A stretch of DNA of 32,000 nucleotides. It comes from Desulfatiglandales bacterium (GTDB lineage Bacteria; Desulfobacterota; DSM-4660; Desulfatiglandales; HGW-15). The notes beneath the pieces were generated by a model. The model was not told the DNA's origin. It did not search any database and worked only from the letters and a program-made list of their open reading frames with translations. The translations under genes and the position numbers were made by a program. The DNA lies in NCBI GenBank assembly GCA_049366815.1, contig JBMNCO010000209.1, positions 17,464-49,463 of the forward strand, in the 5' to 3' direction. Of this stretch, positions 15,162 through 32,000 are shown one piece after another. The first letter of the stretch is position 1; each line of letters starts with the position of its first letter.

Positions 15162-17639
15162 ATGATGCACCGAAAAATATCGCCCTGTTTTCTGATCCCA
15201 TTCGTAATCGCTTTTATCATCACCGGTTCTTTCACCCAGACGTCGGCGGCCGAGTTCACCGCCGACATCGTTATCTCGGGACCCGCTGACAACGACACAT
15301 TCAAGCTCCATGTCAGGGACACGATGTATCGTCTTCAGAAGATCCAGGGGGCTTTGAATATCCCCCCCTATCCCACCATCGTAAACGGGGATACGGGTGT
15401 CACCTGGGGCCTTAATCCTGACAGCCGCCGGTATGTTGAAATCAGGGACATCGAAAAGACCGTCATGATGAACCCTCTGATCGGTTGGGCCGCGACTCGA
15501 AAGAATTTCGTGGAAAAGGGGGGCCCGGCAGAAAATTTGAACGGCTATCTGTGTGAGACATGGATCTATACGGCGCCCGGAAAACCAGAGACCGTCGGCA
15601 AGGTCTGGTTCTCCAAAAAGCTCAGACACATCCTCCGGGAAGAGCGTTACGGATTGAATCAGAACCCCGTGCTGGAACTCAAGAATATCCAGGAAGGACC
15701 CGTGGATCCGGCGCTCTTCGAGATCCCCGCGGGATACACGAAGTTGGACATGGACGCAGATCAGGGGGCAAAACCATCGGGTGATGCCCCGAAGCACATC
15801 ACCAAAAGTTCCGCTGCTTCCATGAAACCGAAGGTGGAGACCATTGAGATCAGGAAGGGATCAGGCAGGGGGCAATCCCTGGAAGCGGACCGCCGCATCG
15901 TGGTCACGGCCACCGGTGACAGTCCCGAAGGCGGCATTTCAAAAGCAGGTCTCACGGTTCACGACAGGAACAAGAATGTCATCGAATCAGCCCGTTTCGC
16001 CCTTCAAAACAACCAGACCCGCTCCTGGGAAATCCCCCCCGAAATGGAACCCTGGACCCTGTCTCTTTCAGGAGAAGAAGGCCGCGTCGTCTTCAAGGTG
16101 GAGCAATTCGCCGCTGAAACAGAGGCACAACCTGCAGAATCCCGAGACTTCGAGGCCCCGGCCACACCCGAACATGGGCCTGACAGGGCCACCGCGACCC
16201 CACAACCCACGGTGAAATCCCCTCAAAATGAAGACCTCGGGAAGCCGGCTCCTTCCGTTGCGCCTTCCGGAAATCTTGTGTTCATTCTGGACGCCTCGGG
16301 TTCCATGTGGGGCCAGGTCGAAGGCAAGGCCAAGATTGCCATCGCCAAGGAGGTGCTCACCGATCTCATCAACGAGTTCCCGGATGACGCCGTCGTAGGT
16401 CTCGTGGCCTATGGGCACCGCCGGAAGGGGGATTGTGACGACGTAGAGGAACTGGTGTCTCCGGGTAAAATTGACAAAAGCAAGCTCATCAGCACCATCC
16501 AGGGACTGAGTCCCAAGGGCAAGACCCCGATCTCCCGGTCGGTTCGCATGACGGCCGATGGGATCAGACATCTGGAAGATGAAACCACCATCATCCTGGT
16601 CTCGGACGGCAAAGAGACCTGCGACCCGGATCCCTGCGGCCTGGTCAAGGAACTCAAGGCGGCCGGGATCAAATTTATAATGCACGTCATCGGATTCGAT
16701 GTGACCGAGGAAGAGAAGTCTCAACTGGAGTGCATGGCCCAGGCCGGTGGCGGCGGGTACTTTACGGCCAAGACGGCCAAGGAGTTTCAGATGGCGGCAC
16801 AGGAGGTGGTGCACAAGGCCCAAAAGCCTTACGGCGTTCTCCGGATGACGGTCATGAAAAACGGTAAACCCTTTTTTACGCCTATTCGGGTGTTACGCGC
16901 CGTGAGCGGAGAGAGAGTTTTCGATTCATCCTCTTCAGGCGAGACCGGTGTCCGGGACATCCGCCTGGACCCCGGGACCTATCATGTTGAAGTCAGGGAT
17001 ATCAGCGTCAGCGGGGGTAAGACACCCGAGATCACTCTGAGGGATATCGTCATTAAGGCCGGAGAAATCGTGGAGAGATCGGCCGACTTTTCAGACGGCA
17101 CCCTGATCATTACGGCCCTGCGCAACAAGGCCCCATGCAAGGTCACGGCCTTTTATTATCGCCGGGGCGAAAAGAAGGCCTTCGTCAATCTTCAAACACA
17201 CCCCAAATCCGGAAAAATTTCGCGCAGATTGCTGCCCGGCCCTTACCGCATCGAGGTGGTGGATAGCAGCATTGCGGGCAGTCCTTCCGTGGTGTTCGAT
17301 CCATTGGAGATTCCTCCGGGCGGAACGGTGGAAAAGAGTGCCGAATTCTTTGCCGGTGATCTCACAGTGGCTGCTACACTGAATGGAGAGCCCTATAACA
17401 CGCCCTTCGAGGTCTACAATGATTCCGGGAAAAAGATCTCCAGTGCCTGGACCCAAGGGCGGGTGAACGGACAACGACTGGTGAGGCTTCAGGCAGGCAC
17501 GTACACCATCAAGGTTAGAAGTACCAGAGATGCCAAGCAGGTCCAGGCCTTTGAAAACGTAACCATCGAGACAGGGGGGGCAAAGACCATAACGGCCGCC
17601 TTTCCTCTTGAGCATGCGGCACCGGAGCCACACCCTTAA
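15162..17639 (+). CDS. Secreted multidomain von Willebrand factor type A (VWA) protein
   Basis: GGAGGAG RBS and a signal peptide ...FTQTSAAEF. The N-terminal domain of about 200 aa is DUF4412/LolA-like (tentative). A P/E/A-rich linker is followed by a VWA domain with the MIDAS motif LVFILDASGSMWG. Three tandem modules of about 85 aa each contain G(T/P)Y-x-(V/I)-x-V. Confidence 0.85.
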   Translation: MMHRKISPCFLIPFVIAFIITGSFTQTSAAEFTADIVISGPADNDTFKLHVRDTMYRLQKIQGALNIPPYPTIVNGDTGVTWGLNPDSRRYVEIRDIEKTVMMNPLIGWAATRKNFVEKGGPAENLNGYLCETWIYTAPGKPETVGKVWFSKKLRHILREERYGLNQNPVLELKNIQEGPVDPALFEIPAGYTKLDMDADQGAKPSGDAPKHITKSSAASMKPKVETIEIRKGSGRGQSLEADRRIVVTATGDSPEGGISKAGLTVHDRNKNVIESARFALQNNQTRSWEIPPEMEPWTLSLSGEEGRVVFKVEQFAAETEAQPAESRDFEAPATPEHGPDRATATPQPTVKSPQNEDLGKPAPSVAPSGNLVFILDASGSMWGQVEGKAKIAIAKEVLTDLINEFPDDAVVGLVAYGHRRKGDCDDVEELVSPGKIDKSKLISTIQGLSPKGKTPISRSVRMTADGIRHLEDETTIILVSDGKETCDPDPCGLVKELKAAGIKFIMHVIGFDVTEEEKSQLECMAQAGGGGYFTAKTAKEFQMAAQEVVHKAQKPYGVLRMTVMKNGKPFFTPIRVLRAVSGERVFDSSSSGETGVRDIRLDPGTYHVEVRDISVSGGKTPEITLRDIVIKAGEIVERSADFSDGTLIITALRNKAPCKVTAFYYRRGEKKAFVNLQTHPKSGKISRRLLPGPYRIEVVDSSIAGSPSVVFDPLEIPPGGTVEKSAEFFAGDLTVAATLNGEPYNTPFEVYNDSGKKISSAWTQGRVNGQRLVRLQAGTYTIKVRSTRDAKQVQAFENVTIETGGAKTITAAFPLEHAAPEPHP

Positions 17640-17784
17640 AAAAACATGAACCGGGTTCTCGACAACCGGGGCGAATTAAAATGCACGGTTGCAAAATCCG
17701 AGGATGTCCAGTATGTTGGGCACTCTTATTTTTAAAATCCCGGGTTCGGGAATCAAAACAGAAACTTAATAAGCGGAGGTTGCT

Positions 17785-18201
17785 ATGTTTAGACGAATGG
17801 CCTTGTTTGTTCTCATTTCCTTGCTCATCCTGTCTTTTGATGCCCTTGCAGGCGGCCCCAATCTCAATCCCGGCAAATGGGAGATCACAACTGAAACGGA
17901 GATGGTTGGGATGCCCATGAAGGTCCCACCGGTTACACACACCCAGTGTCTTACCGCGAAAGATATCGTCCCCCAGAGCGAAGGGGAATCCAAGGAGTGT
18001 CAGGTTTCCGATATCAAGATCTCCGGCGATACCGTATCATGGAAGATCGTGTGCTCCGGTCAGGGGGGTGCGATGGAAGGAACCGGGAGCATCACATACA
18101 GCGGAGATCGGATGAAAGGCACCATGGACATGACAATAAAGGGTGCCGGCATGCAGGTCAAAAATAAGATCAGCGGCCGACGCATTGGTGATTGCGACTG
18201 A
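17785..18201 (+). CDS. DUF3617-like small secreted protein or lipoprotein
   Basis: GGAGG RBS and a signal peptide. PGKWEITTETEMVGMPMKVPPVTHTQCLT and conserved Cys pairs (CQVSD...KIVC) resemble DUF3617. Confidence 0.65.
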   Translation: MFRRMALFVLISLLILSFDALAGGPNLNPGKWEITTETEMVGMPMKVPPVTHTQCLTAKDIVPQSEGESKECQVSDIKISGDTVSWKIVCSGQGGAMEGTGSITYSGDRMKGTMDMTIKGAGMQVKNKISGRRIGDCD

Positions 18202-18259
18202 ACGGCCCCTGTCCTGAATCCAAAATTTTCCAATGCTGAGGGTCTAAGGATATTTTTCA

Positions 18260-19561
18260 TTGGATAGGATTTTTCTGCTTATCATATCACTCTGTGTCTC
18301 TCTCCTGATGTATCTGGGCTTTGTATTCATTCTGAGAAGCGAGAGGGGGAGAGACTACATCGGCCGGCACTGGTATTATCATCCGAACGCGATCTGCCTG
18401 TGGAGATTATGCATAGCCCTGCCGGGCACGATCCTGTACTTCGTGGCTGATCAACACTTCTGGGGTATCTTGTTGTTCACCTTTGCCGCGGTATTGGACG
18501 GTGTCGACGGACTCGTCGCCAGGAAGTGTGAGCGTGTCACACCCCTTGGGGAAGAACTCGATCCGCTGTGTGACAAACTGACCTATCTGCCCGCCATGTT
18601 CTTTTTCGCCTATCGCGGTCTGCTCAATGTGAGCGCAGTATGGACACTGCTCATCATAGAGGCCTGCGGGCAGTTCCTGGTCAGATATTTTATCAAGCGT
18701 TTTACAAAATTCTCGGTGACTGCGAATAATTTCGGGAAGATCAAGGCCGTGATGTGTTTTGCCCTGATCATCTACTGTGCGCTTCTGGATGATGCCCTGC
18801 GAATTCCGGACTTTTCGGCTCAAATGCTTTACCTGTGTATCATTTTGTCTGTCTCATCGAGCGTTTTCAAGTTGATTCCCAATCGCTTTTATGCCGACAT
18901 CCTGTCCATTCTGAATCTGCTGTGCGGCATTCTGGGCATAATCCTGGCCTTTCAGGGTCGATATGTCTATGTGGCCCTTGCAATCATGGCCGGACAGATC
19001 TTCGATCTTTTCGACGGCCGGATGGCCGAAAAACACGGGGGGACAAAGTTCGGGCCCTGGCTCGATGATATCGCGGACCTGGTCAGCTTCGGCCTTTGCC
19101 CCGCTCTCCTGATCGTCTTCAAGGGCGATATGTCCGCCTTGCCCTTTATTTTTGGAATGCTCTATTTCCTTGCAGTAGGCTTTCGACTATGGCGATATCT
19201 TTTTCGTGACAAATATGACAGCACTCTTCCCCCGGGTGTCTTCAGCGGCCTGCCCAGCCCTGCCGGCGCCATCGTTGTCTTGGGCGCCTGCCTGTTTTTG
19301 GAAAACCGGTGGGCGATTCTGGGTATCATTTTTGTCGCCTCTTTCCTGCTTGTCAGCCATGTCAGGTTTGTCCATTTCGGGCGCGTCATACTGCAGACCC
19401 TGCCTCGAACCTTTATTGTCATATTCGGCTTTATTATCCTGTTCATCACCGCCTATCTCATCAAGGCAAGAGACTCGCAAATGCTTGGTGCCCTGCTCCT
19501 CATATGTTTCATCGTTTATATTGTGACAAGCACCAGGATAATGATCAAAAAGACCCAGTGA
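18260..19561 (+). CDS. Tandem CDP-alcohol phosphatidyltransferase fusion (PgsA-like N-half, PssA-like C-half)
   Basis: There are two signature motifs in one 433-aa polytopic ORF. The first is DGLVARKCERVTPLGEELDPLCD, the canonical D-G-x2-A-R-x8-G-x3-D-x3-D. The second is DGRMAEKHGGTKFGPWLDDIAD, which has A-E in place of A-R, a 7-residue spacer and a following SFGLCPA. The start is TTG. Confidence 0.8.
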   Translation: MDRIFLLIISLCVSLLMYLGFVFILRSERGRDYIGRHWYYHPNAICLWRLCIALPGTILYFVADQHFWGILLFTFAAVLDGVDGLVARKCERVTPLGEELDPLCDKLTYLPAMFFFAYRGLLNVSAVWTLLIIEACGQFLVRYFIKRFTKFSVTANNFGKIKAVMCFALIIYCALLDDALRIPDFSAQMLYLCIILSVSSSVFKLIPNRFYADILSILNLLCGILGIILAFQGRYVYVALAIMAGQIFDLFDGRMAEKHGGTKFGPWLDDIADLVSFGLCPALLIVFKGDMSALPFIFGMLYFLAVGFRLWRYLFRDKYDSTLPPGVFSGLPSPAGAIVVLGACLFLENRWAILGIIFVASFLLVSHVRFVHFGRVILQTLPRTFIVIFGFIILFITAYLIKARDSQMLGALLLICFIVYIVTSTRIMIKKTQ

Positions 19562-19625
19562 TAAAGGGGGCTGCGGGATTCAAAGACCACGGCGTGACCG
19601 CGACACAAGGGGATGCACATCGTAA

Positions 19626-19669
19626 TTGACATGGAAAGAAGGATCATATATGGAATGATGATATATGGA
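19626..19669 (+). promoter_or_regulatory. Candidate promoter (TTGACA) with two tandem 13-nt direct repeats over the -10 region
   Basis: TTGACA lies at 19626-19631. GATCATATATGGA (19642-19654) and GATGATATATGGA (19657-19669) are separated by 2 nt, about 45 nt upstream of the methyltransferase operon start. Confidence 0.3.
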
Positions 19670-19713
19670 CCATTTCCTGCCATAATCAATTTACAAGAAA
19701 AGAGGTGTGGCGC

Positions 19714-20511
19714 ATGATTATCATCGGAGAACTCATCAATTCCACCAGGAAGGCGATTGCTGCAGCCATCGAGGCCGCCGATGCCGCCGCGATCCAGGAG
19801 ATCGCCCGAAATCAGGCCCAGGCCGGTGCCGACTACATTGATGTCAATGCCGGTTCCTTCAGGGACCGGGAAGCGGAACATCTGAAATGGCTTGTCAAAG
19901 TGGTGCAGGAGGTGGTCGATCTTCCATGCTGCCTTGACAGTCCAAATCCGGCGGCACTCGAGGCGGCACTCTCGGAGCACAGAGGCACCCCCATGATCAA
20001 TTCCATCTCTCTCGAAAGAGACAGGAAGGACAAGCTTCTCCCACTCCTGAGGGGGAGCGGGCACAAGGTTGTCGCCCTTTGTACGAGTGATGCGGGCATG
20101 CCCAGGACGGCCGAAGACCGGATCCGCACGGCCGAGGAACTGATCCGCTTGCTCCTCGATCATGACGTCAATGTGGAAAACATCTATGTGGATCCCCTGG
20201 TTCAGCCCGTCGCTACGGATCAGACATTTGGACACGAGTTTCTGGAATCCGTCGAGCAGATCATGGCCCGCTTTCCCGGGATACATACCATATGCGGGTT
20301 GTCCAATATATCCTACGGTCTCCCGCAGCGAAAGTTTCTCAACCGGACCTTTATGGCCATGGCCATAGCAAAAGGTCTTGATGCGGCCATCCTGGATCCC
20401 ATGGATAAACAGATGATGGCAAACGTGCTTGGTGCGGAGGCCCTCGCCGGCAGAGACAGGTTCTGCATGAAATACATCGGTGCCTATCGCAGCAAGATGT
20501 TAGAGGTCTAG
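19714..20511 (+). CDS. Methyltetrahydrofolate:corrinoid methyltransferase (pterin-binding, MeTr/AcsE-like; MT-II)
   Basis: MIIIGELINSTRK..., GADYIDVNAG, INSISLE and GLSNISYGLPQR are typical of pterin-binding methyltransferases. AGAGG lies 8 nt upstream of ATG 19714. Confidence 0.8.
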   Translation: MIIIGELINSTRKAIAAAIEAADAAAIQEIARNQAQAGADYIDVNAGSFRDREAEHLKWLVKVVQEVVDLPCCLDSPNPAALEAALSEHRGTPMINSISLERDRKDKLLPLLRGSGHKVVALCTSDAGMPRTAEDRIRTAEELIRLLLDHDVNVENIYVDPLVQPVATDQTFGHEFLESVEQIMARFPGIHTICGLSNISYGLPQRKFLNRTFMAMAIAKGLDAAILDPMDKQMMANVLGAEALAGRDRFCMKYIGAYRSKMLEV

Positions 20512-20567
20512 GAATCTTTGGCTCAAACCCCTTTAGCTGAGCACATCATGAAAAAAGGAGACCCTAT

Positions 20568-21200
20568 ATGACGGAAGCATTGGTGCATGCCCTGGTGGAA
20601 ATGCAGGAGGCCGCAGCGATTGAAAAGGCAAAACAATTGCTGGATGAAGGAACCGATCCCATGGAGATTCTCAAGGCCTGTTCGACGGCCATGGAGGCCG
20701 TAGGGACACGGTTTGAAAACGGGGAGTATTTTTTGCCCCATCTTATGATGGCGGGTGAAATGCTGCGCGAGATCTCCGAAATGATCAAGCCCATGATCGA
20801 GGATGTCGGACGCAAAGACTCGAAGGGGAAGGTCTTGATTGGAACCGTCAAGGGTGACATTCATGACATCGGCAAGAACATTGTTGTCTTTCTCCTCGAC
20901 GCCAACGGTTATGAGGTGCGGGATATCGGGATCGATCAGCCGCCGGAAAAATTCGTGGAGGCCATCCGGGACTTTGAGCCCCAGGTCGTGGGTATGAGCG
21001 GCCTGCTCACCCTCGCCTTTGACTCCATGAAGGAGACGGTAAAGGCCATCGAAGGGGCCGGACTTCGAGACAAGGTCCGTATCATGATCGGTGGCGGTCA
21101 GATCAGCGAACAAGTAAGAGACTATACCGGTGCCGATGCCTTCGGGGAGGACGCCCTGGCGGGCGTCAGACTCGTCAAGAAGTGGATAGGAGGGCAATAA
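20568..21200 (+). CDS. Corrinoid (B12-binding) protein of a methyltransferase system
   Basis: It has an N-terminal helical cap and a Rossmann B12-binding domain with the DxHxxG motif (GTVKGDIHDIGKNIV), then MSGLLT and IMIGGG. AGGAGA RBS. Confidence 0.9.
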   Translation: MTEALVHALVEMQEAAAIEKAKQLLDEGTDPMEILKACSTAMEAVGTRFENGEYFLPHLMMAGEMLREISEMIKPMIEDVGRKDSKGKVLIGTVKGDIHDIGKNIVVFLLDANGYEVRDIGIDQPPEKFVEAIRDFEPQVVGMSGLLTLAFDSMKETVKAIEGAGLRDKVRIMIGGGQISEQVRDYTGADAFGEDALAGVRLVKKWIGGQ

Positions 21201-21201
21201 C

Positions 21202-22545
21202 ATGAAGGAGCGATTTGTCGATCCGGCCCCCGATGCCGATGCAAAACAGGAAGAGCGATTCCGAATCTGGCTTTCCGGCGAGGGGCTCACTTTTGCCGAC
21301 GCGGACTCAAAGGCCATGTACCAGGAGCGCGTCACCCTCATGAAGGATGCGATACAGCTCAAAAAGGCGCCCGCCCGGATTCCCATATGCCCTTCGTTGG
21401 GCTTTTTCCCCATGCAATACGCCGGCATCACCATGTATGACGCCATGTACGACTACGAGGCCCTGCAAAGATGCTGGGAGATCTTCTACAAGGATTTTGC
21501 CCCGGATGCCTATAACGGTCCGGCGAACATCGTCCCGGGCAGGACCCTGGATATCCTGGACTTGAAACTCTACCACTGGCCGGGGCACGGCGTGTCCAAA
21601 GAACGGGAATACCAGTTCGCAGAAGACGAGTACATGAAGGCCGATGAGTATCAGGATCTGATCGATGATCCGAGCGCCTTTTTCCTGAGCCGTTATTTCC
21701 CGAGAATCTTCGGCTCCCTCAAGCCTTTGGAAAACCTGCCCATTTTGCCTCCGATCCATGAGATCCCGACGTTTCCCCCCGCCTTCATGCGCTTTGGGAG
21801 CCAGGACATGAAAAAGGCCTTCGAAGCCCTTTACCAGGCCGGGGAAGAAGCCCTGCGATGGGGGGCGGTTTCAAGGGCAGTGAGCGGAAAAATCATGGGA
21901 CAGGGGTTCCCGTCCTTTTCGGGCGGCTTTACCAAGGCGCCCTTTGACGTGATCGGGGACAGCCTTCGAGGGACCAGGGGGATCATGCTCGACATGTTCC
22001 GATCCCCGGATGAATTAAAGGAGGCCTGCGACCGCCTGACACCCATCATGGTCAAGTCCGGGGTCGCCTCCTGCCGGGCAAACGGCCACATCATGCCCTT
22101 CATCCCTCTCCACAAGGGGGCGGACGGCTTTCTGTCCGACGAAATGTTCCGAAAATTCTACTGGCCGAGCCTGCGAAAGCTCATCATCGGCCTTGTCAAT
22201 GAGGGCATGGTCCCACAGCTTTTTGTCGAGGGCGCTTACAATGAGCGCCTGGATGTCATCAGCGATGTCCCGAAGGGGAAGGCCTTCTGGTGGTTCGACC
22301 GAACGGATATGGTCCGGGCCAAGGAGACCGTGGGCCGGGTGGCCTGTATCGGCGGGAACTTTCCCCTCGATCTGTTGTGCACCGCCACCCCGGATGCGGT
22401 CAGGGCCCATTGCAGGACACTCATGGAACAGGCCGGAAGAGACGGCGGCTTCATATTTTCGACCGGTGCCGGCATGCAGGGGGCAAAGCCTGAAAATGTC
22501 AAGGCAATGATCGAGAGTGCGAAGGAATATGGCGCCCTTGTTTGA
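21202..22545 (+). CDS. Uroporphyrinogen-decarboxylase-family methyltransferase (putative substrate:corrinoid MT-I)
   Basis: The 447-aa ORF starts 1 nt after the corrinoid protein stop. It has URO-D-family features (APFDVIGDSLRGTRGIMLDMFRSPDE, CIGGNFPLDLLCTATPDAVR, GGFIFSTGAG). Confidence 0.75.
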   Translation: MKERFVDPAPDADAKQEERFRIWLSGEGLTFADADSKAMYQERVTLMKDAIQLKKAPARIPICPSLGFFPMQYAGITMYDAMYDYEALQRCWEIFYKDFAPDAYNGPANIVPGRTLDILDLKLYHWPGHGVSKEREYQFAEDEYMKADEYQDLIDDPSAFFLSRYFPRIFGSLKPLENLPILPPIHEIPTFPPAFMRFGSQDMKKAFEALYQAGEEALRWGAVSRAVSGKIMGQGFPSFSGGFTKAPFDVIGDSLRGTRGIMLDMFRSPDELKEACDRLTPIMVKSGVASCRANGHIMPFIPLHKGADGFLSDEMFRKFYWPSLRKLIIGLVNEGMVPQLFVEGAYNERLDVISDVPKGKAFWWFDRTDMVRAKETVGRVACIGGNFPLDLLCTATPDAVRAHCRTLMEQAGRDGGFIFSTGAGMQGAKPENVKAMIESAKEYGALV

Positions 22546-22838
22546 TGACGTGGCTGGCGATCCTTTGAGGCGGGAAAAGTTTGTCATCGAGTTTAAAAAG
22601 GTAACATAAGATTCTGTATTTTTGTATTTTTATTGCTGTAAACCATATCCTTTCTTTGTTTTGATCCGGACGGTTTGCACAGGCCAGTGTAAACCGTCCG
22701 CCTGTCCGCTTTCACAGTGTCGTCCCGGGCAAACACGCCATCTCTCTGGTGCAAAAAAACCCGAAGGCCGACGATCTCCGCATATGGGCGTGGCTGCGGA
22801 TCGCTCATGGGGGCGATCTCGGGATAACTCGCAAAATC

Positions 22839-22866
22839 CGGATCATCCAAAATGATCCGTTTTTTT
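22839..22866 (+). terminator. Rho-independent terminator hairpin (possibly bidirectional)
   Basis: CGGATCAT ccaaa ATGATCCG is followed by TTTTTTT. On the other strand an A-run precedes it and ATTTTG follows. It sits between the convergent methyltransferase operon and the minus-strand small genes. Confidence 0.6.
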
Positions 22867-23200
22867 ATGACGAAAGAAGAATCTGGTCGCCGAATGCCTC
22901 GGACAGGGCCTGGACGAGGGTATCGACATCCTCCTGTTTTTCAAATTCAACCATGAGTTCTCCGGCTTCACCCACGACGAGTCGTCCGTGCCCTTCAACG
23001 ATTTTCGCGACCTTCTCCGGTTCGACGGTCCACCATCCACGTGTCCTCATGAGCAACTCCCTGCCCTTGAGACGTCTCGGCGTCACCAGATCGATATCTC
23101 GAAACCAGGCGTCCCACCCGACCCGGGCCGGGGCCCGAAGCACCGGACTCACGGGATCATGATAAATACGGCAACGACCGAACAAACGCAATCGAATCAT
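22865..23200 (-). CDS. Hypothetical protein (111 aa)
   Basis: Its start overlaps the upstream gene's stop by 4 nt (ATGA), which suggests translational coupling. I recognise no family. Confidence 0.5.
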   Translation of the reverse strand: MIRLRLFGRCRIYHDPVSPVLRAPARVGWDAWFRDIDLVTPRRLKGRELLMRTRGWWTVEPEKVAKIVEGHGRLVVGEAGELMVEFEKQEDVDTLVQALSEAFGDQILLSS

Positions 23201-23538
23201 GGGATCACCATCCGAACGACTTTATCTATCTCCGGGTCATCGGGCAGGCCGGCATCGGACACCTCGCAACCGTCTCTCACCATGCGACTAGCCAGACATC
23301 GCACAAAAATAACGGCGGCCCTTTCCGGCGTCAATTCAATGCCCCTTCTGCTTGCCTCCGCCCATGCCTTTTCAAACAGTACCCTTGCCGGTTGCCGCCA
23401 GGTTCCCAGCCGCGGATCAAGTGGAGGGGTGCCGACTCGTTTCAGAAAGGCGGACTGTGCCGCCTCCATGGCCTTGAAGACCTGCCGCATCATTTTGACG
23501 GCAGGGTCCCGGCCCCAATCGTCTCTGTTCCCTGTCAT
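23197..23538 (-). CDS. Hypothetical protein (113 aa)
   Basis: It starts 23 nt after the thiM stop, with GGGAG about 10 nt upstream. It lies on the same strand as thiE-thiL-thiM. I recognise no family. Confidence 0.5.
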   Translation of the reverse strand: MTGNRDDWGRDPAVKMMRQVFKAMEAAQSAFLKRVGTPPLDPRLGTWRQPARVLFEKAWAEASRRGIELTPERAAVIFVRCLASRMVRDGCEVSDAGLPDDPEIDKVVRMVIP

Positions 23539-23561
23539 TGCTCCGACTCCCTATGGGTCCG

Positions 23562-24371
23562 CTAGCACTGGACCTTTGCGCCTTTCCGCAAGGTCTCGCC
23601 GTCGATGCGAAAAAGGGCATCGAGAAGCCCAAGCTGAAAACCGCCCGGCGCATCGGCCTCTTCAGCGGCCTTTTCCCCCGCCAGCCCGAAGTAGGCTAGG
23701 GCCGTGGTTGCGGCCTCCAGCGAATTCGCTTGAACGGCGAGGAATGCGCCGATCAGGGCCGTGGCGGCGCACCCCGTGCCTGTTACGTATCCCATCAATT
23801 CATGGCCGTTTGAGACGCGACAGACCCTGGAACCATCCGTGACAAGATCCACGGCCCCCGTGATGGCCAGGGTGGTGCCCAATTCCTTTGCCAGTTGCCC
23901 GGCGGCATCTGCAGCCTCCTCCACGCCGTGGATGGAATCCACCCCTTTGGTCCTGGAGTCGTCGCCGGCCAGGGAGAGGACCTCCGAGGCATTTCCCCTG
24001 ACCACGCTGATGTCGAGCTCATTGAGAAGGCTTTTGGCCGATTGGGTTCGCAGCGTGGTCGCCCCGGAACCCACAGGATCCAGGATGACCGGGACGTTGC
24101 GTTGATTGGCGCGTTTTCCGGCCTTTAACATGGAGGTGATCCAGTAAGGTGTGAGGGTCCCGATATTGAGCACCAGTGCACCTGCAAAGGAGACCATTTC
24201 CTCCACTTCCTCGTGCGCGTGGGCCATGACAGGAGAGGCCCCGCAGGCCAGGAGGGCGTTCGCGGTGAAATTCATCACCACGAGATTCGTGATATTGTGT
24301 ACCAGAGGCCTTTTCTCCCTCACATTTTTCAAATTTTCAGCAGCCTTCCGGGCCATGACTTGATCGAACAT
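23562..24371 (-). CDS. thiM: Hydroxyethylthiazole kinase
   Basis: PLVHNITNLVVMNFTANALLACGASPVMAHA and GTGCAATALIGAFLAV are ThiM hallmarks. ATG 24371 is preceded by GGAGAAGAAGAGG. The track ORF extends 60 codons further upstream with no support. Confidence 0.9.
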   Translation of the reverse strand: MFDQVMARKAAENLKNVREKRPLVHNITNLVVMNFTANALLACGASPVMAHAHEEVEEMVSFAGALVLNIGTLTPYWITSMLKAGKRANQRNVPVILDPVGSGATTLRTQSAKSLLNELDISVVRGNASEVLSLAGDDSRTKGVDSIHGVEEAADAAGQLAKELGTTLAITGAVDLVTDGSRVCRVSNGHELMGYVTGTGCAATALIGAFLAVQANSLEAATTALAYFGLAGEKAAEEADAPGGFQLGLLDALFRIDGETLRKGAKVQC

Positions 24372-24397
24372 ACCTCTTCTTCTCCTATAATATACGA

Positions 24398-25432
24398 CTA
24401 TTTGTTGGACGCCATGAAGTGGTCCCACCCACCGGCCCGAATGGACTTGGAGGTGCCGTCGGGAAGGATCAGGTTCAGTCCTCTGCACCTTTCCACCAAC
24501 CGTCCGACCTCTGTGACGGGCACATCGCTTACGGCCTTGAGGGCGGAACAAAGCGGGCTCACGTTCTCCGGTGCACAGGTGATGATGAGTTCATAATCGT
24601 CGCTATCGCCCAGGACCAACTCGAGGGGGTCCTCTCCCAATTGGAGCGCGGCCTCTCTCAGCGCGTCACTGACAGGCAGTCTTTCCTCAATGAGTTCGGC
24701 GCCCACAGCGCTCTCCTCACAGATATGCCCGAGATCACCCAAAAAACCGTCGCTCGTATCGATCATTGCGGTGGCAAGTCCTGAGAGGCCGACGGCCCTG
24801 CCCTCCTGCGCGCGGTGAGATGGTCTGTTATATCGGCGGACGAGGGGATGAGACCTCAGGTCATGACCGGGAACTCCCTTCAACAGGAGATGGAGGCCGG
24901 CTGCAGCCTCCCCCGGGAAACCTGTAACCAGGACGGTATCCCCTTCCCGCGCCGTCGATCGCTTTATGCTTTTTCCCACCTCCACCTCACCGATTAGGGT
25001 GATGTCAATAAATACGGCCCCAACGGCCTTTGTCAGGTTTCCGCCGATGATACCTGCCCCAAAGGGATTGAGTTCGGCAAGAAAACCCAGGTAAAGGTCT
25101 TCGATGTCCCTGACCCTGGTGTCATTGTTCAGCCCCAGGGATACGAGGGCGTACAGGGGCGAACCGCCCATGGCGCCGATGTCGCTGATGTTCAGGGCCA
25201 TGGCACGCCGGCCGAGGTCGTGGGGGCTGATATGCCCGGACAGGTAGTGCCGCCCCTCCACGATGCAGTCACAGGTGACCAGGATTTCAAACCCGTCCCG
25301 GGGGCGGAATGATGCGGCATCATCGCCGATGCCGAGTCTGACCCCGGCCTGGGGCACGCCATCCTGTTTGATGATCCTGTGGATGCGGTCAATGAGACCG
25401 AACTCCCCGATGCTCGCGAGCGTCTCAGACAT
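24398..25432 (-). CDS. thiL: Thiamine-monophosphate kinase
   Basis: MSETLASIGEFGLIDRI..., GIGDDAA, DIGAMGG and TSDGFLGDLGHIC are AIR-synthase-fold ThiL motifs. It overlaps the thiE stop by 8 nt. Confidence 0.9.
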   Translation of the reverse strand: MSETLASIGEFGLIDRIHRIIKQDGVPQAGVRLGIGDDAASFRPRDGFEILVTCDCIVEGRHYLSGHISPHDLGRRAMALNISDIGAMGGSPLYALVSLGLNNDTRVRDIEDLYLGFLAELNPFGAGIIGGNLTKAVGAVFIDITLIGEVEVGKSIKRSTAREGDTVLVTGFPGEAAAGLHLLLKGVPGHDLRSHPLVRRYNRPSHRAQEGRAVGLSGLATAMIDTSDGFLGDLGHICEESAVGAELIEERLPVSDALREAALQLGEDPLELVLGDSDDYELIITCAPENVSPLCSALKAVSDVPVTEVGRLVERCRGLNLILPDGTSKSIRAGGWDHFMASNK

Positions 25433-26069
25433 GGCGGTCTTCCGGTTTCCCTCTCGTCAGGGCCTCCTTCAGGGCCCTTGCCGCTGCCGTCGGATCTTTC
25501 CGGCAGCACACGGCTGATATCACGGCAATCCCCTTTGCCCCCGTTTCCATGACCTCCCAGGCATTTTCCACGGTGATGCCCCCGATGGCAACGATCGGGA
25601 GCGGAATGCTCTCAACCACCTCTTTCAGTAGGGCTATCCCGCTTACCGGTCCCGCATCATCCTTCGATGTCGTGGGAAATACCGGACCGAACCCCACATA
25701 ATCGGCCCCCTCTGAAAGGCAGATACGGGCCTCATCCAGGTCCGATGCCGACCCCCCGATAATCCAGTCGGGTCCAAGCAGTTTTCTTGCCAAAGGGATC
25801 GGAAAGTCGTCCTGACCCAGATGGACACCGTGGGCGTCGGCGGCCAGGGCCACATCCACCCTGTCATTGACAATGAAACTGACCCCCGCGTCTTCGCAAA
25901 GACGCCTCATTTGACGGGCCATATCAATCAATTCACGGGTGGAGCCGGTCTTTTGCCGAAACTGGATGGTATCCGCCCCGCCCGCAATGGCCAATCCGGT
26001 CAGTTCCACATGGGAAAATCGCGACTGCAGGGCAACGTCCGTCAATACATGCAGTGTTCCAATCTTCAT
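25425..26069 (-). CDS. thiE: Thiamine-phosphate synthase
   Basis: LHVLTD, IQFRQK, FIVNDRVDVALAADAHGVHLGQDD, GPVFPTTSK and VAIGGI are ThiE motifs. I chose ATG 26069 (MKIGTLHV...). Confidence 0.9.
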   Translation of the reverse strand: MKIGTLHVLTDVALQSRFSHVELTGLAIAGGADTIQFRQKTGSTRELIDMARQMRRLCEDAGVSFIVNDRVDVALAADAHGVHLGQDDFPIPLARKLLGPDWIIGGSASDLDEARICLSEGADYVGFGPVFPTTSKDDAGPVSGIALLKEVVESIPLPIVAIGGITVENAWEVMETGAKGIAVISAVCCRKDPTAAARALKEALTRGKPEDRHV

Positions 26070-26199
26070 CTTTGAAACCACTCCTCTAGAATTTCCATAC
26101 GTTTTCAAGTGGGACATATGACCATTGGAAGCCGGAACTTGTCAAGCCTTCTTTCTCTCGGATGAGTGGGACAGGGGCACAGTCATACCACTACCGCCG

Positions 26200-26225
26200 G
26201 TTTCAATCCACGCTCCCGCATGGGG
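26200..26225 (-). repeat. Orphan partial CRISPR repeat (repeat positions 1-26 of 32 as written on the plus strand)
   Basis: gtttcaatccacgctcccgcatgggg is identical to the first 26 nt of the plus-strand form of the array repeat at 31287-31977. The match stops there (tattca versus agcgac). Confidence 0.9.
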
Positions 26226-26324
26226 TATTCAATATTGCTAGGGATTTGTATTGGTAAGGGCATGTTTTTGTTGTCCTCACAAGGTTTTTTCTGTAAAAAA
26301 TGAATTCGAATCTGGAGGGCTGAA

Positions 26325-26657
26325 ATGAAATGCGCCATATGCGGAATTGAAGTGGAAACCATTGATGAGGCCATCGAACAAAATTGGATCCATACCTTTT
26401 ATGAAGGGGAAGTGGAACATGGCCCCTTGTGCTCATCCTGCGCTGAGACAATGATATGTATTGGTGAAGATGCGGTAATGCTGTTGAAGGCCAAGTATCA
26501 TGACAAACTGAGGTATTTTCCCGAAAAAACCCTAAATGCCCACAGAAACACTTGCCTATTGGCATTGCCATCCTATAAAACGAACCCAGTAAACTCAACT
26601 GAGGTTCCCATTAGCAATTGTAATCACTACAAAAACGCTGACCTAAAACTCACCTGA
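26325..26657 (+). CDS. Small zinc-ribbon-like hypothetical protein
   Basis: GGAGGG lies 5 nt upstream of the ATG. There are CAIC (residues 3-6) and CSSC (residues 36-39) CxxC pairs. The context is low-GC, and the C-terminal half is low complexity and may not all be coding. Confidence 0.45.
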   Translation: MKCAICGIEVETIDEAIEQNWIHTFYEGEVEHGPLCSSCAETMICIGEDAVMLLKAKYHDKLRYFPEKTLNAHRNTCLLALPSYKTNPVNSTEVPISNCNHYKNADLKLT

Positions 26658-27044
26658 AGGGGGATCTTTTTCGGGAAAATGTTCACGAGCCCATCATTTG
26701 GGTATACTTGAATTTGAAATTCCCATCATCTGCAGCCCAATTGAAATTGTAATCGCAACCTGGGCTTCACTAAAATCGCCGCCCAGCCCCTCTAAATTTC
26801 TTGTTGACACGCCTAAAATTGTGCTAAAAAGGTATTAGTAATCCTACCACTGAAGTTTTTACTCCACCCATTTTGCGAGGTAGCCATGAAACTGGATCGC
26901 CTCAAAATGCCTTTATAATGCCCCCCTGAGGCTTCTGCCTTATGGAGGCGTGAAGAATCATTTCCGATCGGTAATAAAGCCAAACCCGTGGAGAGATTGC
27001 GACGGAAAGCGACGGATCCGTAATAGCTCACAAGGGAGGCTATC

Positions 27045-27554
27045 ATGAAGCGAAATATTGTATTTACAGCTATAATAGTCATGGTCTGTGCTATAGGAGC
27101 CTCAGTCGAGCAAGCCAGTGGCGAACCTGCAGGACCACCCGGTGGGCTGGACGTGAACGTCGTCAATACACCAAATGTCAATATTGGCAACGTACCAAGC
27201 GTCACCGTCAAAAATGAAACATCCATTCCCGTGAAAGACAGCAATCGACCAAAGCTAATCACGACCAGCACCCGGGTAGGTGCCTACAAAGATCAGTCGG
27301 AGAACACGAATCTTGCTAGTATTCCGACCTGCCCAGATGGTGAGCACTTCTTGTTCTCGGGACTTTATGCAGCACCTAGCACGTACGATTCCCCAGATTC
27401 GGTTTCCCTGGGACCCTGGATTGTGAGCGTTGAAGATGTATGGCAACTCTCCCAATCCGGTTTTTTCAGAGTACCTCTTAACGTCGGTTCTGAGGGACAT
27501 TGGCATGCTTCTGTGGCTCTACCAGGGGCAGGAAGGCCCCTGATCCCGGCGTGA
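27045..27554 (+). CDS. Secreted hypothetical protein, probably frameshifted (possible full length to 27661)
   Basis: GGGAGG RBS and a signal peptide MKRNIVFTAIIVMVCAIGASVEQASG. Coding-like sequence continues in another frame after a C4 run at 27537-27540. Confidence 0.6.
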   Translation: MKRNIVFTAIIVMVCAIGASVEQASGEPAGPPGGLDVNVVNTPNVNIGNVPSVTVKNETSIPVKDSNRPKLITTSTRVGAYKDQSENTNLASIPTCPDGEHFLFSGLYAAPSTYDSPDSVSLGPWIVSVEDVWQLSQSGFFRVPLNVGSEGHWHASVALPGAGRPLIPA

Positions 27555-27897
27555 GCAGCACAGCTACGGTGAGAGTCAAATTGGCGTCTCCAGTTACGTC
27601 TTACAATGTGGAATTTGAAGTCCATATAACCGGCTTTTGCGGCACACCTTACATTCGTTGAGATAAGTTATTCATTTCGGCTAAATCCCTTTTTGTCGAA
27701 TTCGTCCGAGCTACTTTGAACCATGACCAATTATGCCGAGACGATAAAATTAATCATTCCGGCGTGCCCTGAACGGTCAATGCCAAAGATGGTGGTTGGG
27801 TTGGCAATCGAAACGGCTTCCCGGGTGTTTCTATCTCCAGGGAACCCTCGGAGGCGGCAACTTTAGTTTAGCAGCGCTTGAAGAAATCAAGGTACTG

Positions 27898-28298
27898 TCA
27901 ATTTTTTTGTGTGAAATTCCTTTCAGCCAATTCCTTGAAGAAAGGCAGGTTCTTGGCACCTTTTCCTATAGGTTTTGATCTGCAGTAGACTTCCATCTTC
28001 AAACAGACAAATGCAAGAACAGTGTAGCAGGGCCTTTCTCCTGCAACGATCTCCATCGGTTTCGTTCTGCACTTGAATTCCTTGTTGAGTCCTTCGCGAA
28101 TTCGTTTACCAATCGTCTTTTTGCGTCTCTCTGGAACAATACGAAAGCCTCTTTTCCGGGGACTGACCTGAACTCCGCAATTTCGAGGGAGGGCTGAATT
28201 TGTGGTTCTTTGGATGGCATGTGCCAGACCAAAGTGCAACTTTCCATTGTAGAACTGTCAACCTCACAACGCCAATCCGAACCGCGAATTTTCATCAA
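27898..28298 (-). pseudogene. IS256/Mutator-like transposase remnant (C-terminal fragments, frameshifted)
   Basis: Two overlapping frames carry RTTNSA... and RIREGLNKEFKCRTKPMEIVAGERPCYTVLAFVCLKME. These resemble the IS256-family C-terminal TTNxIExxNxExxRRTxVVxIFPNxxSxxRL block. There is no intact ORF. Confidence 0.4.
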
Positions 28299-28580
28299 TT
28301 TAACAGTGAAACCATCTTACCCAAACAGATCAACGGATCAGCCCAGGATCAGTGAAACTACTCGAACTGCATTGCTAATGGGGTTCAAACCCACCCAACA
28401 CGTAGAAGCCCAAAACCAGAAAATAATGCACTCTTTGGAGGTATCGTGTCAGGTGTAAAATGACCCCCTTAGTAAGTGGATGATACGAGAAGAAGGGAGG
28501 TGATGATAACGCGAAAGCCTCTTTGTAAACGCTGAACTGAAACTGAGTGCTGAATAATTCGAAAATCAAGGAGGTGTATT

Positions 28581-30791
28581 ATGCCTAGCCAAAAGAAGAT
28601 TGTAGCCGTTGTTGTTCTTCTGTCCTGTTTGATTTTCAGTCCATCCATAGGATCGGCGGCAGACGAGATGTCCTGCACCGATCTCGCAGAGCAAATTCTG
28701 GCAGATCCGAACATCCTGTCAGCAACCTCGGTTATCTCGGGGACGACTAATCCTTATTGCCTGGTCAATCTGACGCAATATCAAGCCATTAACATCAGGG
28801 TGGGACTGCCGCTTAATGTTGTGGATGGCGGAACAGGCGGCATCCAGGGGGCGTGGAACGGCAAGGTCCAGAACAGTGGCGGCGGGGGGTTTGCCGGCAG
28901 CGTCGGCTCGGTAGCGAGCGCGGCTTCAAACAGGTATGTTATGTCCTCCTGCGACACTGGCCACAGCAGGGCCTGGTGCAATGAAATCAATCCCGACACC
29001 GGCGAGCCCAACAGCCTGCCCAACTGCGGATCGAGCGGCGCAGGATTCGTCATCGATGGAGATGGCAATTTGATCGATTGGCAGGTTACAGACTTCATCA
29101 CCGACAGTATTTACGCGCAGGTGACATGGGCCCTCGACATCGCCGACCTCTATTACGGCAGGAAGCCGGACCGCAACTACTGGAGTAGCTGTTCAACCGG
29201 TGGGCGCCAGGGATTCGAGATGGCGCAGAAGTATGGCGATCTGTTCGACGGCCTCCTCGTCGGCGCACCGGCGATGAACTGGAACCGGTTCCAGACGGCT
29301 GAGCTGTGGCCCCCGGTCGTCGTGAGAAGCCTGGGGCTCCCTGGAACTCCCCCTACCCTTTCCACGGTCAAAAGCAACGCCGCGATCGCCGCAGCAGTCG
29401 CCGCCTGCTCCGAATACGGTGACGGGGTCCTCAACGAGCCGCGGAGGTGCAACTTCGATGCGCGCACGCTGATCTGCCCGGACGACGGGTCCAATCCTCC
29501 AAACTGCCTGACACCCGAGGAAGCGGACGCCATCAACATGATCTGGTATGGCCCGACCAACCCGCAAGGATACAGGCTCTGGGGCGGCCCCAGCATAGGG
29601 ACGAGCTTCGGCACCATGCTTCCGGGTGGAAATCGTGCCTTCGGCTTTATGTATGACTATGAACGCTACTGGGTGCACCAGGATCCGGATTGGCCCTGGG
29701 AATCGCTCGCAGGTGAAGACTTCGAGGAAAAGTTTACCGAGGAATTCAGATTCCAAGACCAGAAGTTCCAGGAGACGGCCTCGACCGACAGCACCGACCT
29801 TCACAAGATCATAGACCGTGGCGCTAAGATCATCCACTATCACGGGATTTCCGATCCGCTGATCATCCCCTTCGGCTCCTACAACTATGTAAGTCGTGTC
29901 TTCGACCGCTACGGCGTGGCCGAGACGCAGACGTTCATGCGCTCGTTCTTCTTACCGAACCAAGGTCATTGCGGCACGGCCGGCATCTCATTTTTCGACG
30001 CCCTGGTAAACTGGGTCGAGAACGGCGTGGCGCCGGACTACTTCAACGGCAACGTGGGCTCCATGGCCAACCCCAGATATCGAAAGATCTGCAAGTACCC
30101 CGACGAAGCCGTGTACAACGGCGAAGGCCTGGATAACTATGACAACTTCACCTGCCAAGTGAATGAGACCGAGCCTGCGGACCTCTGGGAGCATAGCAAT
30201 CTCGGTCCTATTGTCTTGTGCAAGGACGTTGAAGTATCTGCGTCGCCTACTGAATGCTCCGTAGCAACGGCATCGGTGGACAATGGGTCGTCCGATCGCT
30301 ACGGCGATCCCATTGAACTCGTTCAGGATTCGACCGGGCCATTCTACCTTGGGTCCACGGTGGTCAAGCTGACAGGCACTGACTCGAGAAATGCTGTGAG
30401 CTCATGCGAGGCCACGGTGACGGTGGTCGACACGACTCCTCCGAGCATCTCAAGCGTTACGGCCTCCCCCGACGTTCTCTGGCCGCCGAACCACAAGATG
30501 GTTCCCGTGGCGGTGGATTTGTCGGTCACTGACGCGTGCGACGAAAATGCGGCCGACGGTTGCATGATCGTCTCGGTAGCGAGCAACGAGCCGATCGACG
30601 GGCCCGGTGATGGCAACACGGAACCCGATTACGAGATCACGGGTGATCTTACCCTCAATCTCCGTGCCGAGCGGTCAGGCACGAAGAACGGACGAATATA
30701 CATGGTCACCGTGGCCTGTACGGATGCGTCGGGAAATAGCTCTAGCAATACGGTCGAAGTCACGGTGCCGCACGATCAGTCAAAGAAGTGA
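28581..30791 (+). CDS. Secreted tannase/feruloyl-esterase-family serine hydrolase with a C-terminal Ig/HYR-like extension
   Basis: AGGAGG RBS and a signal peptide. The nucleophile context is YWSSCSTGGRQGFEMAQKYGDLFDGLLVGAPAMNW (family motif GCSxGGRxG), and there is a GHCG His region. The C-terminal extension of about 190 aa has the TTPP...PPNHKMVPV...SNEP...GDGNTEPDY...GRIY pattern. Confidence 0.85.
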   Translation: MPSQKKIVAVVVLLSCLIFSPSIGSAADEMSCTDLAEQILADPNILSATSVISGTTNPYCLVNLTQYQAINIRVGLPLNVVDGGTGGIQGAWNGKVQNSGGGGFAGSVGSVASAASNRYVMSSCDTGHSRAWCNEINPDTGEPNSLPNCGSSGAGFVIDGDGNLIDWQVTDFITDSIYAQVTWALDIADLYYGRKPDRNYWSSCSTGGRQGFEMAQKYGDLFDGLLVGAPAMNWNRFQTAELWPPVVVRSLGLPGTPPTLSTVKSNAAIAAAVAACSEYGDGVLNEPRRCNFDARTLICPDDGSNPPNCLTPEEADAINMIWYGPTNPQGYRLWGGPSIGTSFGTMLPGGNRAFGFMYDYERYWVHQDPDWPWESLAGEDFEEKFTEEFRFQDQKFQETASTDSTDLHKIIDRGAKIIHYHGISDPLIIPFGSYNYVSRVFDRYGVAETQTFMRSFFLPNQGHCGTAGISFFDALVNWVENGVAPDYFNGNVGSMANPRYRKICKYPDEAVYNGEGLDNYDNFTCQVNETEPADLWEHSNLGPIVLCKDVEVSASPTECSVATASVDNGSSDRYGDPIELVQDSTGPFYLGSTVVKLTGTDSRNAVSSCEATVTVVDTTPPSISSVTASPDVLWPPNHKMVPVAVDLSVTDACDENAADGCMIVSVASNEPIDGPGDGNTEPDYEITGDLTLNLRAERSGTKNGRIYMVTVACTDASGNSSSNTVEVTVPHDQSKK

Positions 30792-30910
30792 TGGCCAAAG
30801 ATGGATTATATGGTAAATATGGTACCAAGACCGTGACGAGTGGTAGCCGACGTACTGTTTTGGATAGCAATGAAATAACATAGGCAATGTCCACAGTATG
30901 TACTTTCGGA

Positions 30911-30941
30911 AGACAGAGCCATTTTCTGGCTCTGTCTTTCT
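30911..30941 (+). terminator. Rho-independent terminator after the esterase gene
   Basis: A perfect 10-bp stem AGACAGAGCC attttct GGCTCTGTCT is followed by TTCT, in an AT-rich context. Confidence 0.7.
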
Positions 30942-31240
30942 ATAATGACATCTTTCAGTTGTTGAAACGATAGAACCCGAAAACAAAATGCTATATGATA
31001 CCGACATTTTCATTTTCTTTTTCCTGTCTAATTTTATTACACCGAAGGGCCATCAATAAATAAATCAACAAAAGAAGCAAAAATTGGTTCTTCGAGAGGG
31101 TCGTAAGCATAAACACCGGTGACAACTTGCCCCATTTTTTTGTCTTTATTTTCCAGTAATCACTTACTTTTTGTAAGACTTTAGCCAAAGTTTTACATGG
31201 ATGCCCACGATCCGGGCCAAGAACAGGCCCCTGCAATACA

Positions 31241-32000
31241 CATGGGGAGCGACGAGGAAGAGGCCATTGAGTTCATACGGGAGCACATTTCAATCCACGC
31301 TCCCGCATGGGGAGCGACCGACCCGCACGGGAGGACCCTTTTATGGCCGCTGTTTCAATCCACGCTCCCGCATGGGGAGCGACGGAACATGGGCCGGTAA
31401 CGCCCTAGCAGTAAGGGTTTCAATCCACGCTCCCGCATGGGGAGCGACGTACGACGGCTAGCAACCAACAGGCGATTGCAACAGTTTCAATCCACGCTCC
31501 CGCATGGGGAGCGACTTGGAGGGGAAAGAGGATTTATATAATGAAATAGTTTCAATCCACGCTCCCGCATGGGGAGCGACCAACCCCCTAAATATATCCT
31601 GGTGCGCGGTGGAGTAGTTTCAATCCACGCTCCCGCATGGGGAGCGACTGCCGACAATAGAGAGTGACCATTTAAGATATCGTTTCAATCCACGCTCCCG
31701 CATGGGGAGCGACATGATGGAAAATACAAGGGGCAGAGGTATGGTCTGTTTCAATCCACGCTCCCGCATGGGGAGCGACTGACAGCCGTCAAGATATCCA
31801 GTCCGTTGCCCCGGTTTCAATCCACGCTCCCGCATGGGGAGCGACTCAAGGCCGGCCTCACGACCTAATTGCGTTTGACGTTTCAATCCACGCTCCCGCA
31901 TGGGGAGCGACTTGACCTCGACACCCTTCACGCCGGCGGATTCCAGTTTCAATCCACGCTCCCGCATGGGGAGCGACACGCCGTAAAACATTTGCGGGAT
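31241..32000 (-). CRISPR. CRISPR array with a type I-C-like 32-nt repeat; runs off the window
   Basis: On the minus strand the repeat reads GTCGCTCCCCATGCGGGAGCGTGGATTGAAAC. Repeats start at 31287 (first base variant), 31352, 31417, 31484, 31549, 31617, 31682, 31748, 31814, 31880 and 31946. Spacers are 33-36 nt and unique. A truncated 13-nt repeat piece at 31241-31253 is followed by a 33-nt spacer. Degenerate units at the low-coordinate end imply the leader lies beyond 32000. Confidence 0.95.

Follow-up and report, generated by a model that had tools for sequence, protein, structure and literature searches.

Several kinds of mobile DNA are known to settle in CRISPR arrays (clusters of regularly interspaced short palindromic repeats). 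An IS21-family insertion sequence (IS) lies within an array repeat of Xanthomonas citri and IS6110 within the direct repeat (DR) locus of Mycobacterium tuberculosis (PMC6889575). The temperate phage PhiAP1.1 integrates within type II-A CRISPR repeats of Streptococcus pyogenes by way of 8 bp of identity between attP and attB (bioRxiv 10.1101/2020.10.09.333658), and Tn7-like transposons with tnsABC/D-type genes that target the CRISPR arrays of cyanobacteria insert at one fixed position inside spacers (PMC11837452). The locus described here, in a 32,000-nt stretch (the window) of a metagenome-assembled genome (MAG) of a Desulfatiglandales bacterium (assembly GCA_049366815.1, contig JBMNCO010000209.1), is a new instance of this known type of event, insertion into a CRISPR repeat; its host belongs to an uncultured lineage of Desulfobacterota related to sulfate reducers, and its insert is unusually mosaic. 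The best explanation of the locus as a whole, and a likely one, is that a type I-C-like array beside the thiamine-phosphate synthase gene thiE has been interrupted near its leader-distal end by foreign DNA inside one repeat. Coordinates below are positions in the window, and the segment is the DNA at 26226-31240.

Comparison with these systems illustrates both what is familiar in the locus and what is not. As in X. citri and M. tuberculosis, mobile or foreign DNA within the CRISPR locus splits the array, serves as a vertically inherited lineage marker and is accompanied by later loss of units through recombination. In those cases, however, the insertion sequences are intact, with clear inverted repeats and many genomic copies, whereas the window holds a 5-kb mosaic with no working transposase, weak inverted repeats and no second copy in the sequences searched. 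The geometry of PhiAP1.1 integration is the same as that of the window, in that a repeat is split into overlapping parts, a short core (8 bp versus 7 bp) stands on both sides and terminal or near-terminal repeats are used. Unlike the phage, the segment has no integrase, gives no match in PHROGs, has no circular-junction (attP-like) pattern in IMG/VR, and is only 5 kb long and decayed; the host array, moreover, is type I-C-like and belongs to a Desulfobacterota MAG, in contrast to the type II-A array of the phage host. The Tn7-like elements of cyanobacteria share with the window the association of mobile DNA with CRISPR arrays, but here the break is inside a repeat and Tn7 genes are absent.

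The divided repeat and its counterparts in other assemblies

The array repeat, written on the plus strand, is the 32-nt sequence GTTTCAATCCACGCTCCCGCATGGGGAGCGAC. Ten exact full copies with starts from 31352 to 31946, preceded by a G1A variant at 31287, bring the full repeats in the window to 11; separated by spacers of 33-36 nt, they form the main array (31287-32000, minus strand), which leaves the window toward its leader. Outside this array, nt 1-26 of the repeat occur only once in the window, at 26200-26225 (minus strand). In functional orientation this piece is CCCCATGCGGGAGCGTGGATTGAAAC, the 3' part of the repeat, and its 26/26 match to the repeat cannot be chance. At 31241-31253 (minus strand) stands an exact copy of nt 20-32, followed in register by a 33-nt spacer (31254-31286, minus strand) that starts GAGGAAGAGG and is the oldest still joined to the main array. 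The motif CATGGGG (nt 20-26 of the repeat) terminates the left piece (26219-26225) and opens the right piece (31241-31247); a duplication longer than 7 nt is impossible because the bases flanking the motif differ at the two junctions (G versus A before it, T versus A after it). The distance separating the pieces is 5,015 bp. An initial annotation, made from the sequence of the window, had proposed just this division of the repeat into nt 1-26 and nt 20-32 with CATGGGG in common, and this observation is confirmed. No degenerate repeat copies were found within the segment or elsewhere in the window, where the top scores of 18-19/32 are at the level of shuffled sequence.

Evidence that the array extends to the far side of the segment comes from another assembly. 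In the window, a 38-nt array trailer (26162-26199, minus strand) runs from the last repeat sequence to the promoter region of thiE (25425-26069, minus strand; Pfam TMP-TENI, 2.5e-63), which is its chromosomal neighbour and whose product is 100% identical to a protein of an NCBI MAG labelled Desulfatiglandales bacterium. The 90% cluster of this ThiE includes a Logan protein on an 11.3-kb contig, L080, from run SRR19237656, which is judged to represent a conspecific strain because it is 97.5% identical to window positions 15432-26338 (10.8 kb). Read in the orientation of thiE, L080 carries 113 nt of the segment up to the same junction, followed by the 26-nt piece, a spacer of 33 nt (CCTTCAAGCTCTTGCAAAGCGTGATGAAAATGA), one full repeat that has a single mismatch, and then the trailer and the thiE promoter. 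The trailer and promoter match those of the window, and the sole difference of the window is a 65-nt deletion of exactly that spacer and one repeat length. Because L080 keeps a spacer and a full repeat between the 26-nt piece and the trailer, the array does continue on the thiE side of the segment and has been split. The interrupted repeat was an internal (penultimate) one and not, as the initial annotation had supposed, the leader-distal, oldest repeat, for at least one more spacer-repeat unit lies beyond it in L080. The window strain would afterwards have lost this last 65-nt unit, most simply via recombination between repeats.

The junction on the other side is found in two further contigs, reached through a search with the tannase protein encoded in the segment. 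One of them, L067, comes from the same run as L080 and is collinear with window 26322-31314; the other, L068, from run SRR13394437, is collinear with 28052-31316. Both are 94-95% identical to the window with indels of only 1-3 nt, and in both the right junction is identical, reading ...CCCCTGCAATACA followed by CATGGGGAGCGAC, the same 33-nt spacer and a repeat. The CATGGGG duplication is conserved on the left in L080 and on the right in L067 and L068. Since both junctions recur base for base in the assemblies of two other sequencing runs, they are not assembly artefacts, the origin that the initial annotation had itself named as fatal to its proposal.

Orientation and type were assessed from other genomes with the identical repeat, in which AT-rich, leader-like DNA adjoins the AGCGAC side. 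In one of them (L046), the gene order is cas7 (PF05107), cas4, cas1, cas2 and an AT-rich leader, after which the repeats read GTCGC...ATTGAAAC. The window repeat reads the same on the minus strand, the strand that also encodes thiE. From the side of the leader and the cas order in these genomes, the window array is predicted to be transcribed from the minus strand, its leader and the cas genes to lie past 32000, and 31241 to be on its leader-distal side. This placement supports the earlier statements that the half-repeat has the orientation of thiE and that the insertion lies toward the leader-distal end. The array is classed as type I-C-like from its 32-nt hairpin repeats (predicted hairpin CGCTCCC/GGGAGCG, read from the sequence) and its 33-36-nt spacers. 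Of the genes of a type I-C operon (cas3-cas5-cas8c-cas7-cas4-cas1-cas2), cas7, cas4, cas1 and cas2 were seen in L046, the window itself ending inside the array.

In other arrays with this repeat (L004, L009, L020, L047, L052 and L057, from other phyla), the leader-distal repeat is often abruptly truncated on its ATTGAAAC side, and the 13-nt piece of the window resembles such ordinary terminal repeats in retaining the spacer-proximal end. Unlike it, the truncated terminal repeats elsewhere keep exact runs of 12-25 nt that take in part or all of the hairpin, and in the four other arrays whose trailer side is available for 5-7 kb, no complementary piece lies within that distance. The window piece is cut inside the hairpin, with the missing part 5 kb away and more array behind that part in the sister strain. 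The cut hairpin and its displaced complement speak against the usual decay of a terminal repeat and in favour of disruption by an insertion. The hairpin-keeping truncations elsewhere fit selection only for 3' processing of the last CRISPR RNA (crRNA).

The 26-mer of the left piece is widespread. It was found in 65 genome stretches from many phyla, and every time it stands within a full repeat. A scan of the JGI metagenomes for the 26-mer followed by C or T returned just two point-variant full repeats. Given these two results, there is no sign of recurrent use of the break site.

Some other departures from ordinary array structure were observed with this repeat. On the minus strand of L022, at a leader-proximal position (~6013-6180), the repeat of three successive units is aberrant, part of it being duplicated internally (ATGGGGAGCGAC-GCTCCCGCATGGGGAGCGAC). 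In the MAG "uncultured Desulfosarcinaceae bacterium binchicken_co397_9," five contigs each contain one solitary intact 32-nt repeat with unrelated flanks (L003:6115-6210, L017:~4695-4790, L041:~2210-2305, L049:~1265-1360 and L061:~4330-4425). In each, the repeat is the centre of an identical element of ~96 nt with 25-nt inverted arms, GACAATATGGGGTCAAATCTCGATTTGGGATTT[repeat]AAACCTCAAATCGAGATTTGACCCCATTTGA, and the predicted fold is one long hairpin with the repeat hairpin at its tip (free energy, dG, -55.9 kcal/mol; z -9.3). This element, which is absent from IMG/VR, looks like a dispersed element of the miniature inverted-repeat transposable element (MITE) kind that carries a solitary repeat unit.

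Content of the intervening segment

The 5,015-bp segment (26226-31240), collinear with L067 and L068 and without repeat remnants, is foreign, mosaic DNA. This is concluded from its low and patchy GC content, a zinc-ribbon protein family associated with mobile genetic elements, the remnant of an IS256-family transposase gene, and a tannase module known from unrelated contexts elsewhere. From 26.2 to 28.6 kb, the left ~2.4 kb of the segment, the GC content drops to 0.42-0.47, and at the right end to 0.36-0.44; the flanking genes have 0.58-0.64. None of the spacers in the visible array matches the segment, so that no self-targeting was found.

The open reading frame (ORF) nearest the left junction, at 26325-26657 (plus strand), encodes a zinc-ribbon protein (CxxC...CxxC). 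Its similarity to a family of 93-aa proteins is limited to the first ~60%, DNA homology being confined to 26297-26498. L067 has an in-frame stop within this ORF, and the ratio of nonsynonymous to synonymous substitution rates (dN/dS) is ~1.3. Thus, although the zinc-ribbon ORF listed in the initial annotation is real as a reading frame, the partial family match, the stop in L067 and the high ratio indicate that it is probably a decayed gene. The 93-aa family has no Pfam domain; among the homologous loci collected (L075-L079), its gene immediately follows that of a small resolvase in four ENA contigs and lies within a Rad52/PDDEXK/DUF932 gene cluster in an NCBI MAG, and it appears to be an uncharacterised, mobile-element-associated family.

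Farther to the right, an ORF for a small secreted protein of 169 aa (27045-27554, plus strand) has a possible frameshifted continuation at 27500-27661, for a whole of 27045-27661. It has no match in Pfam, NCBIfam or PHROGs. The reading frames make a frameshift plausible, and L067 has the same break; dN/dS is 0.32, calculated from few changes.

The transposase relic (27898-28101, minus strand) comprises the last 68 codons and the stop of an IS256-family gene. Direct profile searches of the small ORFs of the segment, the relic included, were negative (Pfam at E<=5, NCBIfam and PHROGs, with tblastn against plasmids). In an exhaustive phmmer search, residues 45-113 of the ORF at 27898-28239 (minus strand) match the C termini of proteins of 413-414 aa, which are Pfam Transposase_mut proteins; one of them, P0280, matches PF00872 at 4.8e-91. 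By tblastn with P0280, only aa 347-414 survive in the window, at 28101-27898 (67.6% identity, E 5.6e-23). The IS256-like relic of the initial annotation is in this way confirmed indirectly, its family membership being assigned by transitive homology to PF00872. The relic is real, and because it is internal and truncated it cannot explain the outer junctions.

The largest component is a tannase/feruloyl-esterase module (28482-30951, plus strand) containing the tannase-family esterase gene at 28581-30791, an assignment of the initial annotation that Pfam bears out (Tannase, 4.8e-54). An inverted repeat (I19) forms a hairpin 3' of the gene, at 30910-30938. JGI contigs L069-L074 carry the module at 86.7% identity among unrelated neighbouring genes, with homology ending at 30951. 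With a dN/dS of ~0.4, the gene is under moderate constraint. Over ~800 nt of the gene (29318-30117), identity with L067 and L068 falls to ~85%, compared with 93-100% in neighbouring stretches, a dip that suggests recombination with a more distant allele. In addition, JGI contigs with the 87%-identical module carry a fragment of the 3' end of the same IS256-type transposase (L071:3-85 aligns with window 27978-27896); it lies ~1 kb upstream of the tannase gene in a relative orientation opposite to that of the window. This hints that IS256-family elements have moved the tannase module around.

The AT-rich right terminal part of the segment (30952-31240, 289 nt, GC 0.36-0.42) is specific to this locus and is not part of the tannase module elsewhere. 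Its identity with L067 and L068 is ~96% over 30918-31117 and ~99% over the last ~140 nt. Scans with Rfam and for tRNAs returned nothing near the junctions and, at the gathering threshold, no thiamine pyrophosphate riboswitch upstream of thiE; the sole match of Rfam and ARAGORN in the window is a tRNA-Arg(TCT) at 2352-2428 (minus strand).

A probable single insertion and its alternatives

That foreign DNA split the array, whether cleanly or with further loss, is very probable. The most economical reading, and a fairly likely one, is that a single repeat was cleanly interrupted in one event that duplicated 7 bp. Foreign DNA would have entered one repeat near the leader-distal end of the array, and the break would have left GTCGCTCCCCATG on the main array and CCCCATGCGGGAGCGTGGATTGAAAC on the remaining spacer, terminal repeat and trailer beside thiE, each side having a copy of CCCCATG (plus-strand CATGGGG). 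Mechanistically, the simplest course would be a single integration that used a 7-bp staggered cut or a 7-bp crossover core, for which candidates include a DDE transposase with such a cut, a site-specific integrase with such a core, and a single crossover of circular DNA at 7 bp of microhomology. The event would be older than the divergence of two or more strains with 97.5% identity. The insert has been rearranged and eroded since then, and now contains a truncated IS256-family element, a pseudogenised zinc-ribbon gene and a still-constrained tannase-family gene, and the thiE-side spacer-repeat unit would later have been deleted between repeats in the window strain. A more specific proposal, that the segment is what remains of an integrative element specific for this widespread type I-C repeat, with the 7-bp core CATGGGG of the hairpin as its site of recombination, is doubtful.

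Several well known routes of integration were considered for the junctions and rejected. Cas1-Cas2 integration would duplicate the whole repeat. Casposons are expected to generate target-site duplications (TSDs) of ~14-15 bp and to encode Cas1, a gene that is absent here; Tn7-like elements and CRISPR-associated transposons (CAST) generate 5-bp TSDs, insert in or next to spacers and carry tns genes, which are likewise absent. Group II introns make no TSD.

A confounding issue for the reading of a single clean insertion is that a number of observations weigh against it. The initial annotation had looked to relatives for an empty site with an intact repeat beside thiE, and none was found. The pattern of trailer, intact repeat and oldest spacer has 0 matches in the JGI metagenomes, the pattern having been built on the window-type trailer while the L080-type ancestral form was not searched; JGI seems to lack the window species, as its best ThiE is at most 76% identical and its best tannase homologue 81%. 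By the arrangement of L080, the ancestral empty site would be "...CTTGAAGG + repeat + GAGGAAGA," that is, ...TCATTTTCATCACGCTTTGCAAGAGCTTGAAGG-GTTTCAATCCACGCTCCCGCATGGGGAGCGAC-GAGGAAGAGGCC... In the nearest relative without the segment, L001 (ThiE 91% identical in amino acids and 89% in nucleotides), homology ends at window 26161; no array adjoins thiE, and the DNA upstream of the thiE promoter (L001:1-135) is unrelated and without CRISPR sequence. Judging from this relative, the whole CRISPR locus beside thiE seems to be specific to the window lineage. Neither the segment nor its ends, for which the initial annotation had also suggested a search, recur in the window, in the fetched loci, among plasmids and phages (distant blastn) or in IMG/VR, and searches of Pfam, NCBIfam and PHROGs gave no ORF of the segment the signature of an intact transposase, integrase, recombinase or phage. 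The inverted repeats at its ends are weak and unequally placed. Similar inverted motifs do lie near both ends, as had been pointed out, with TATTGCTAGGG at 26233-26243 (plus strand), 7 nt from its junction, and TATTGCAGGGG at 31228-31238 (minus strand), 2 nt from its junction. The pattern TATTGCWRGGG, defined post hoc from TATTGCTAGGG and the reverse complement of TATTGCAGGGG, matches only these two sites in the 32-kb window, and the best local alignment of the two segment ends (19/24) is reached by 12/500 shuffles, so that the similarity is only weakly significant. Finally, breakpoints drawn uniformly and independently give an overlap of 2-12 nt ~44% of the time. The 7-nt duplication alone is therefore no proof of a clean single event, and although CATGGGG is indeed present on both sides, its resemblance to a 7-bp TSD, noted in the initial annotation, carries little weight where chance overlap is so frequent and truncated repeats are common. 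The core of that earlier account, a repeat and its array split by ~5 kb of inserted DNA, is supported by the remnant in L080 and the junctions in independent assemblies.

The same frequency of chance overlap, as well as the common occurrence of leader-distal repeats truncated abruptly at varied positions in genomes with this repeat, would suit a history in which insertion was coupled with deletion, or in which two illegitimate-recombination breakpoints fell in two different repeats, making the 7-nt overlap a coincidence and not a TSD. Such replacement would also be compatible with a segment that has been repeatedly rearranged, as seen in its truncated IS256 relic and modules of different origin, and that has neither convincing terminal inverted repeats nor a mobilising enzyme. 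Yet it calls for a second breakpoint although a single one would do. Each piece, moreover, matches the repeat perfectly as far as the break, the two jointly rebuild exactly one repeat, and no debris of spacers or repeats lies inside the segment. Replacement is on balance unlikely.

It is more improbable still that the locus consists of two separate arrays or relics in tandem orientation, with ends independently eroded and a native 5-kb region between them. The 13-nt end does resemble the truncated terminal repeats of other arrays, and strains 2.5% apart already have the whole arrangement in common. However, no leader accompanies the left relic, whose first repeat would be cut on the side of the leader, contrary to the usual pattern; the DNA in between is foreign, decayed and without cas genes; and the four other arrays that can be followed for 5-7 kb on the trailer side show no second piece. 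An artefact of assembly or binning, in which contigs were joined at CRISPR repeat sequence, is the kind of error to be considered for a metagenome-assembled genome, since repeats are classic sites of misassembly, and a collapse during assembly of the window could in principle account for its 65-nt difference from L080. This origin is extremely improbable for the junctions, with the left one present in L080 and the right one in L067 and L068, in assemblies of two other sequencing runs, and with shared repeat stretches of only 26 and 13 nt at the junctions.

Implications for the array and its lineage

Processing of type I-C crRNAs by Cas5d needs the repeat hairpin. Because neither piece of the divided repeat can form this hairpin, the 31254-31286 spacer and any others on the far side of the insert are probably dead, in the sense that they would no longer be normally processed, while the rest of the array would be unaffected.

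A repeat-specific integrative element would raise the significance of the locus, and the present evidence is without support for one. If true, the segment would be a Desulfobacterota counterpart of the repeat-integrating phages of S. pyogenes and a second independent case in which CRISPR repeats serve as attachment sites.

As it stands, the locus provides a cross-validated natural case in which a CRISPR array was broken within one of its repeats and has been inherited stably since, with trailer-side units subsequently lost through deletion between repeats. It illustrates that the ends of arrays can be remodelled by foreign DNA, and that "orphan" partial repeats near ordinary genes can mark the far side of a split array. 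For the annotation of CRISPR loci it also suggests a caution, that a truncated terminal repeat may conceal a displaced remnant of the array kilobases away.

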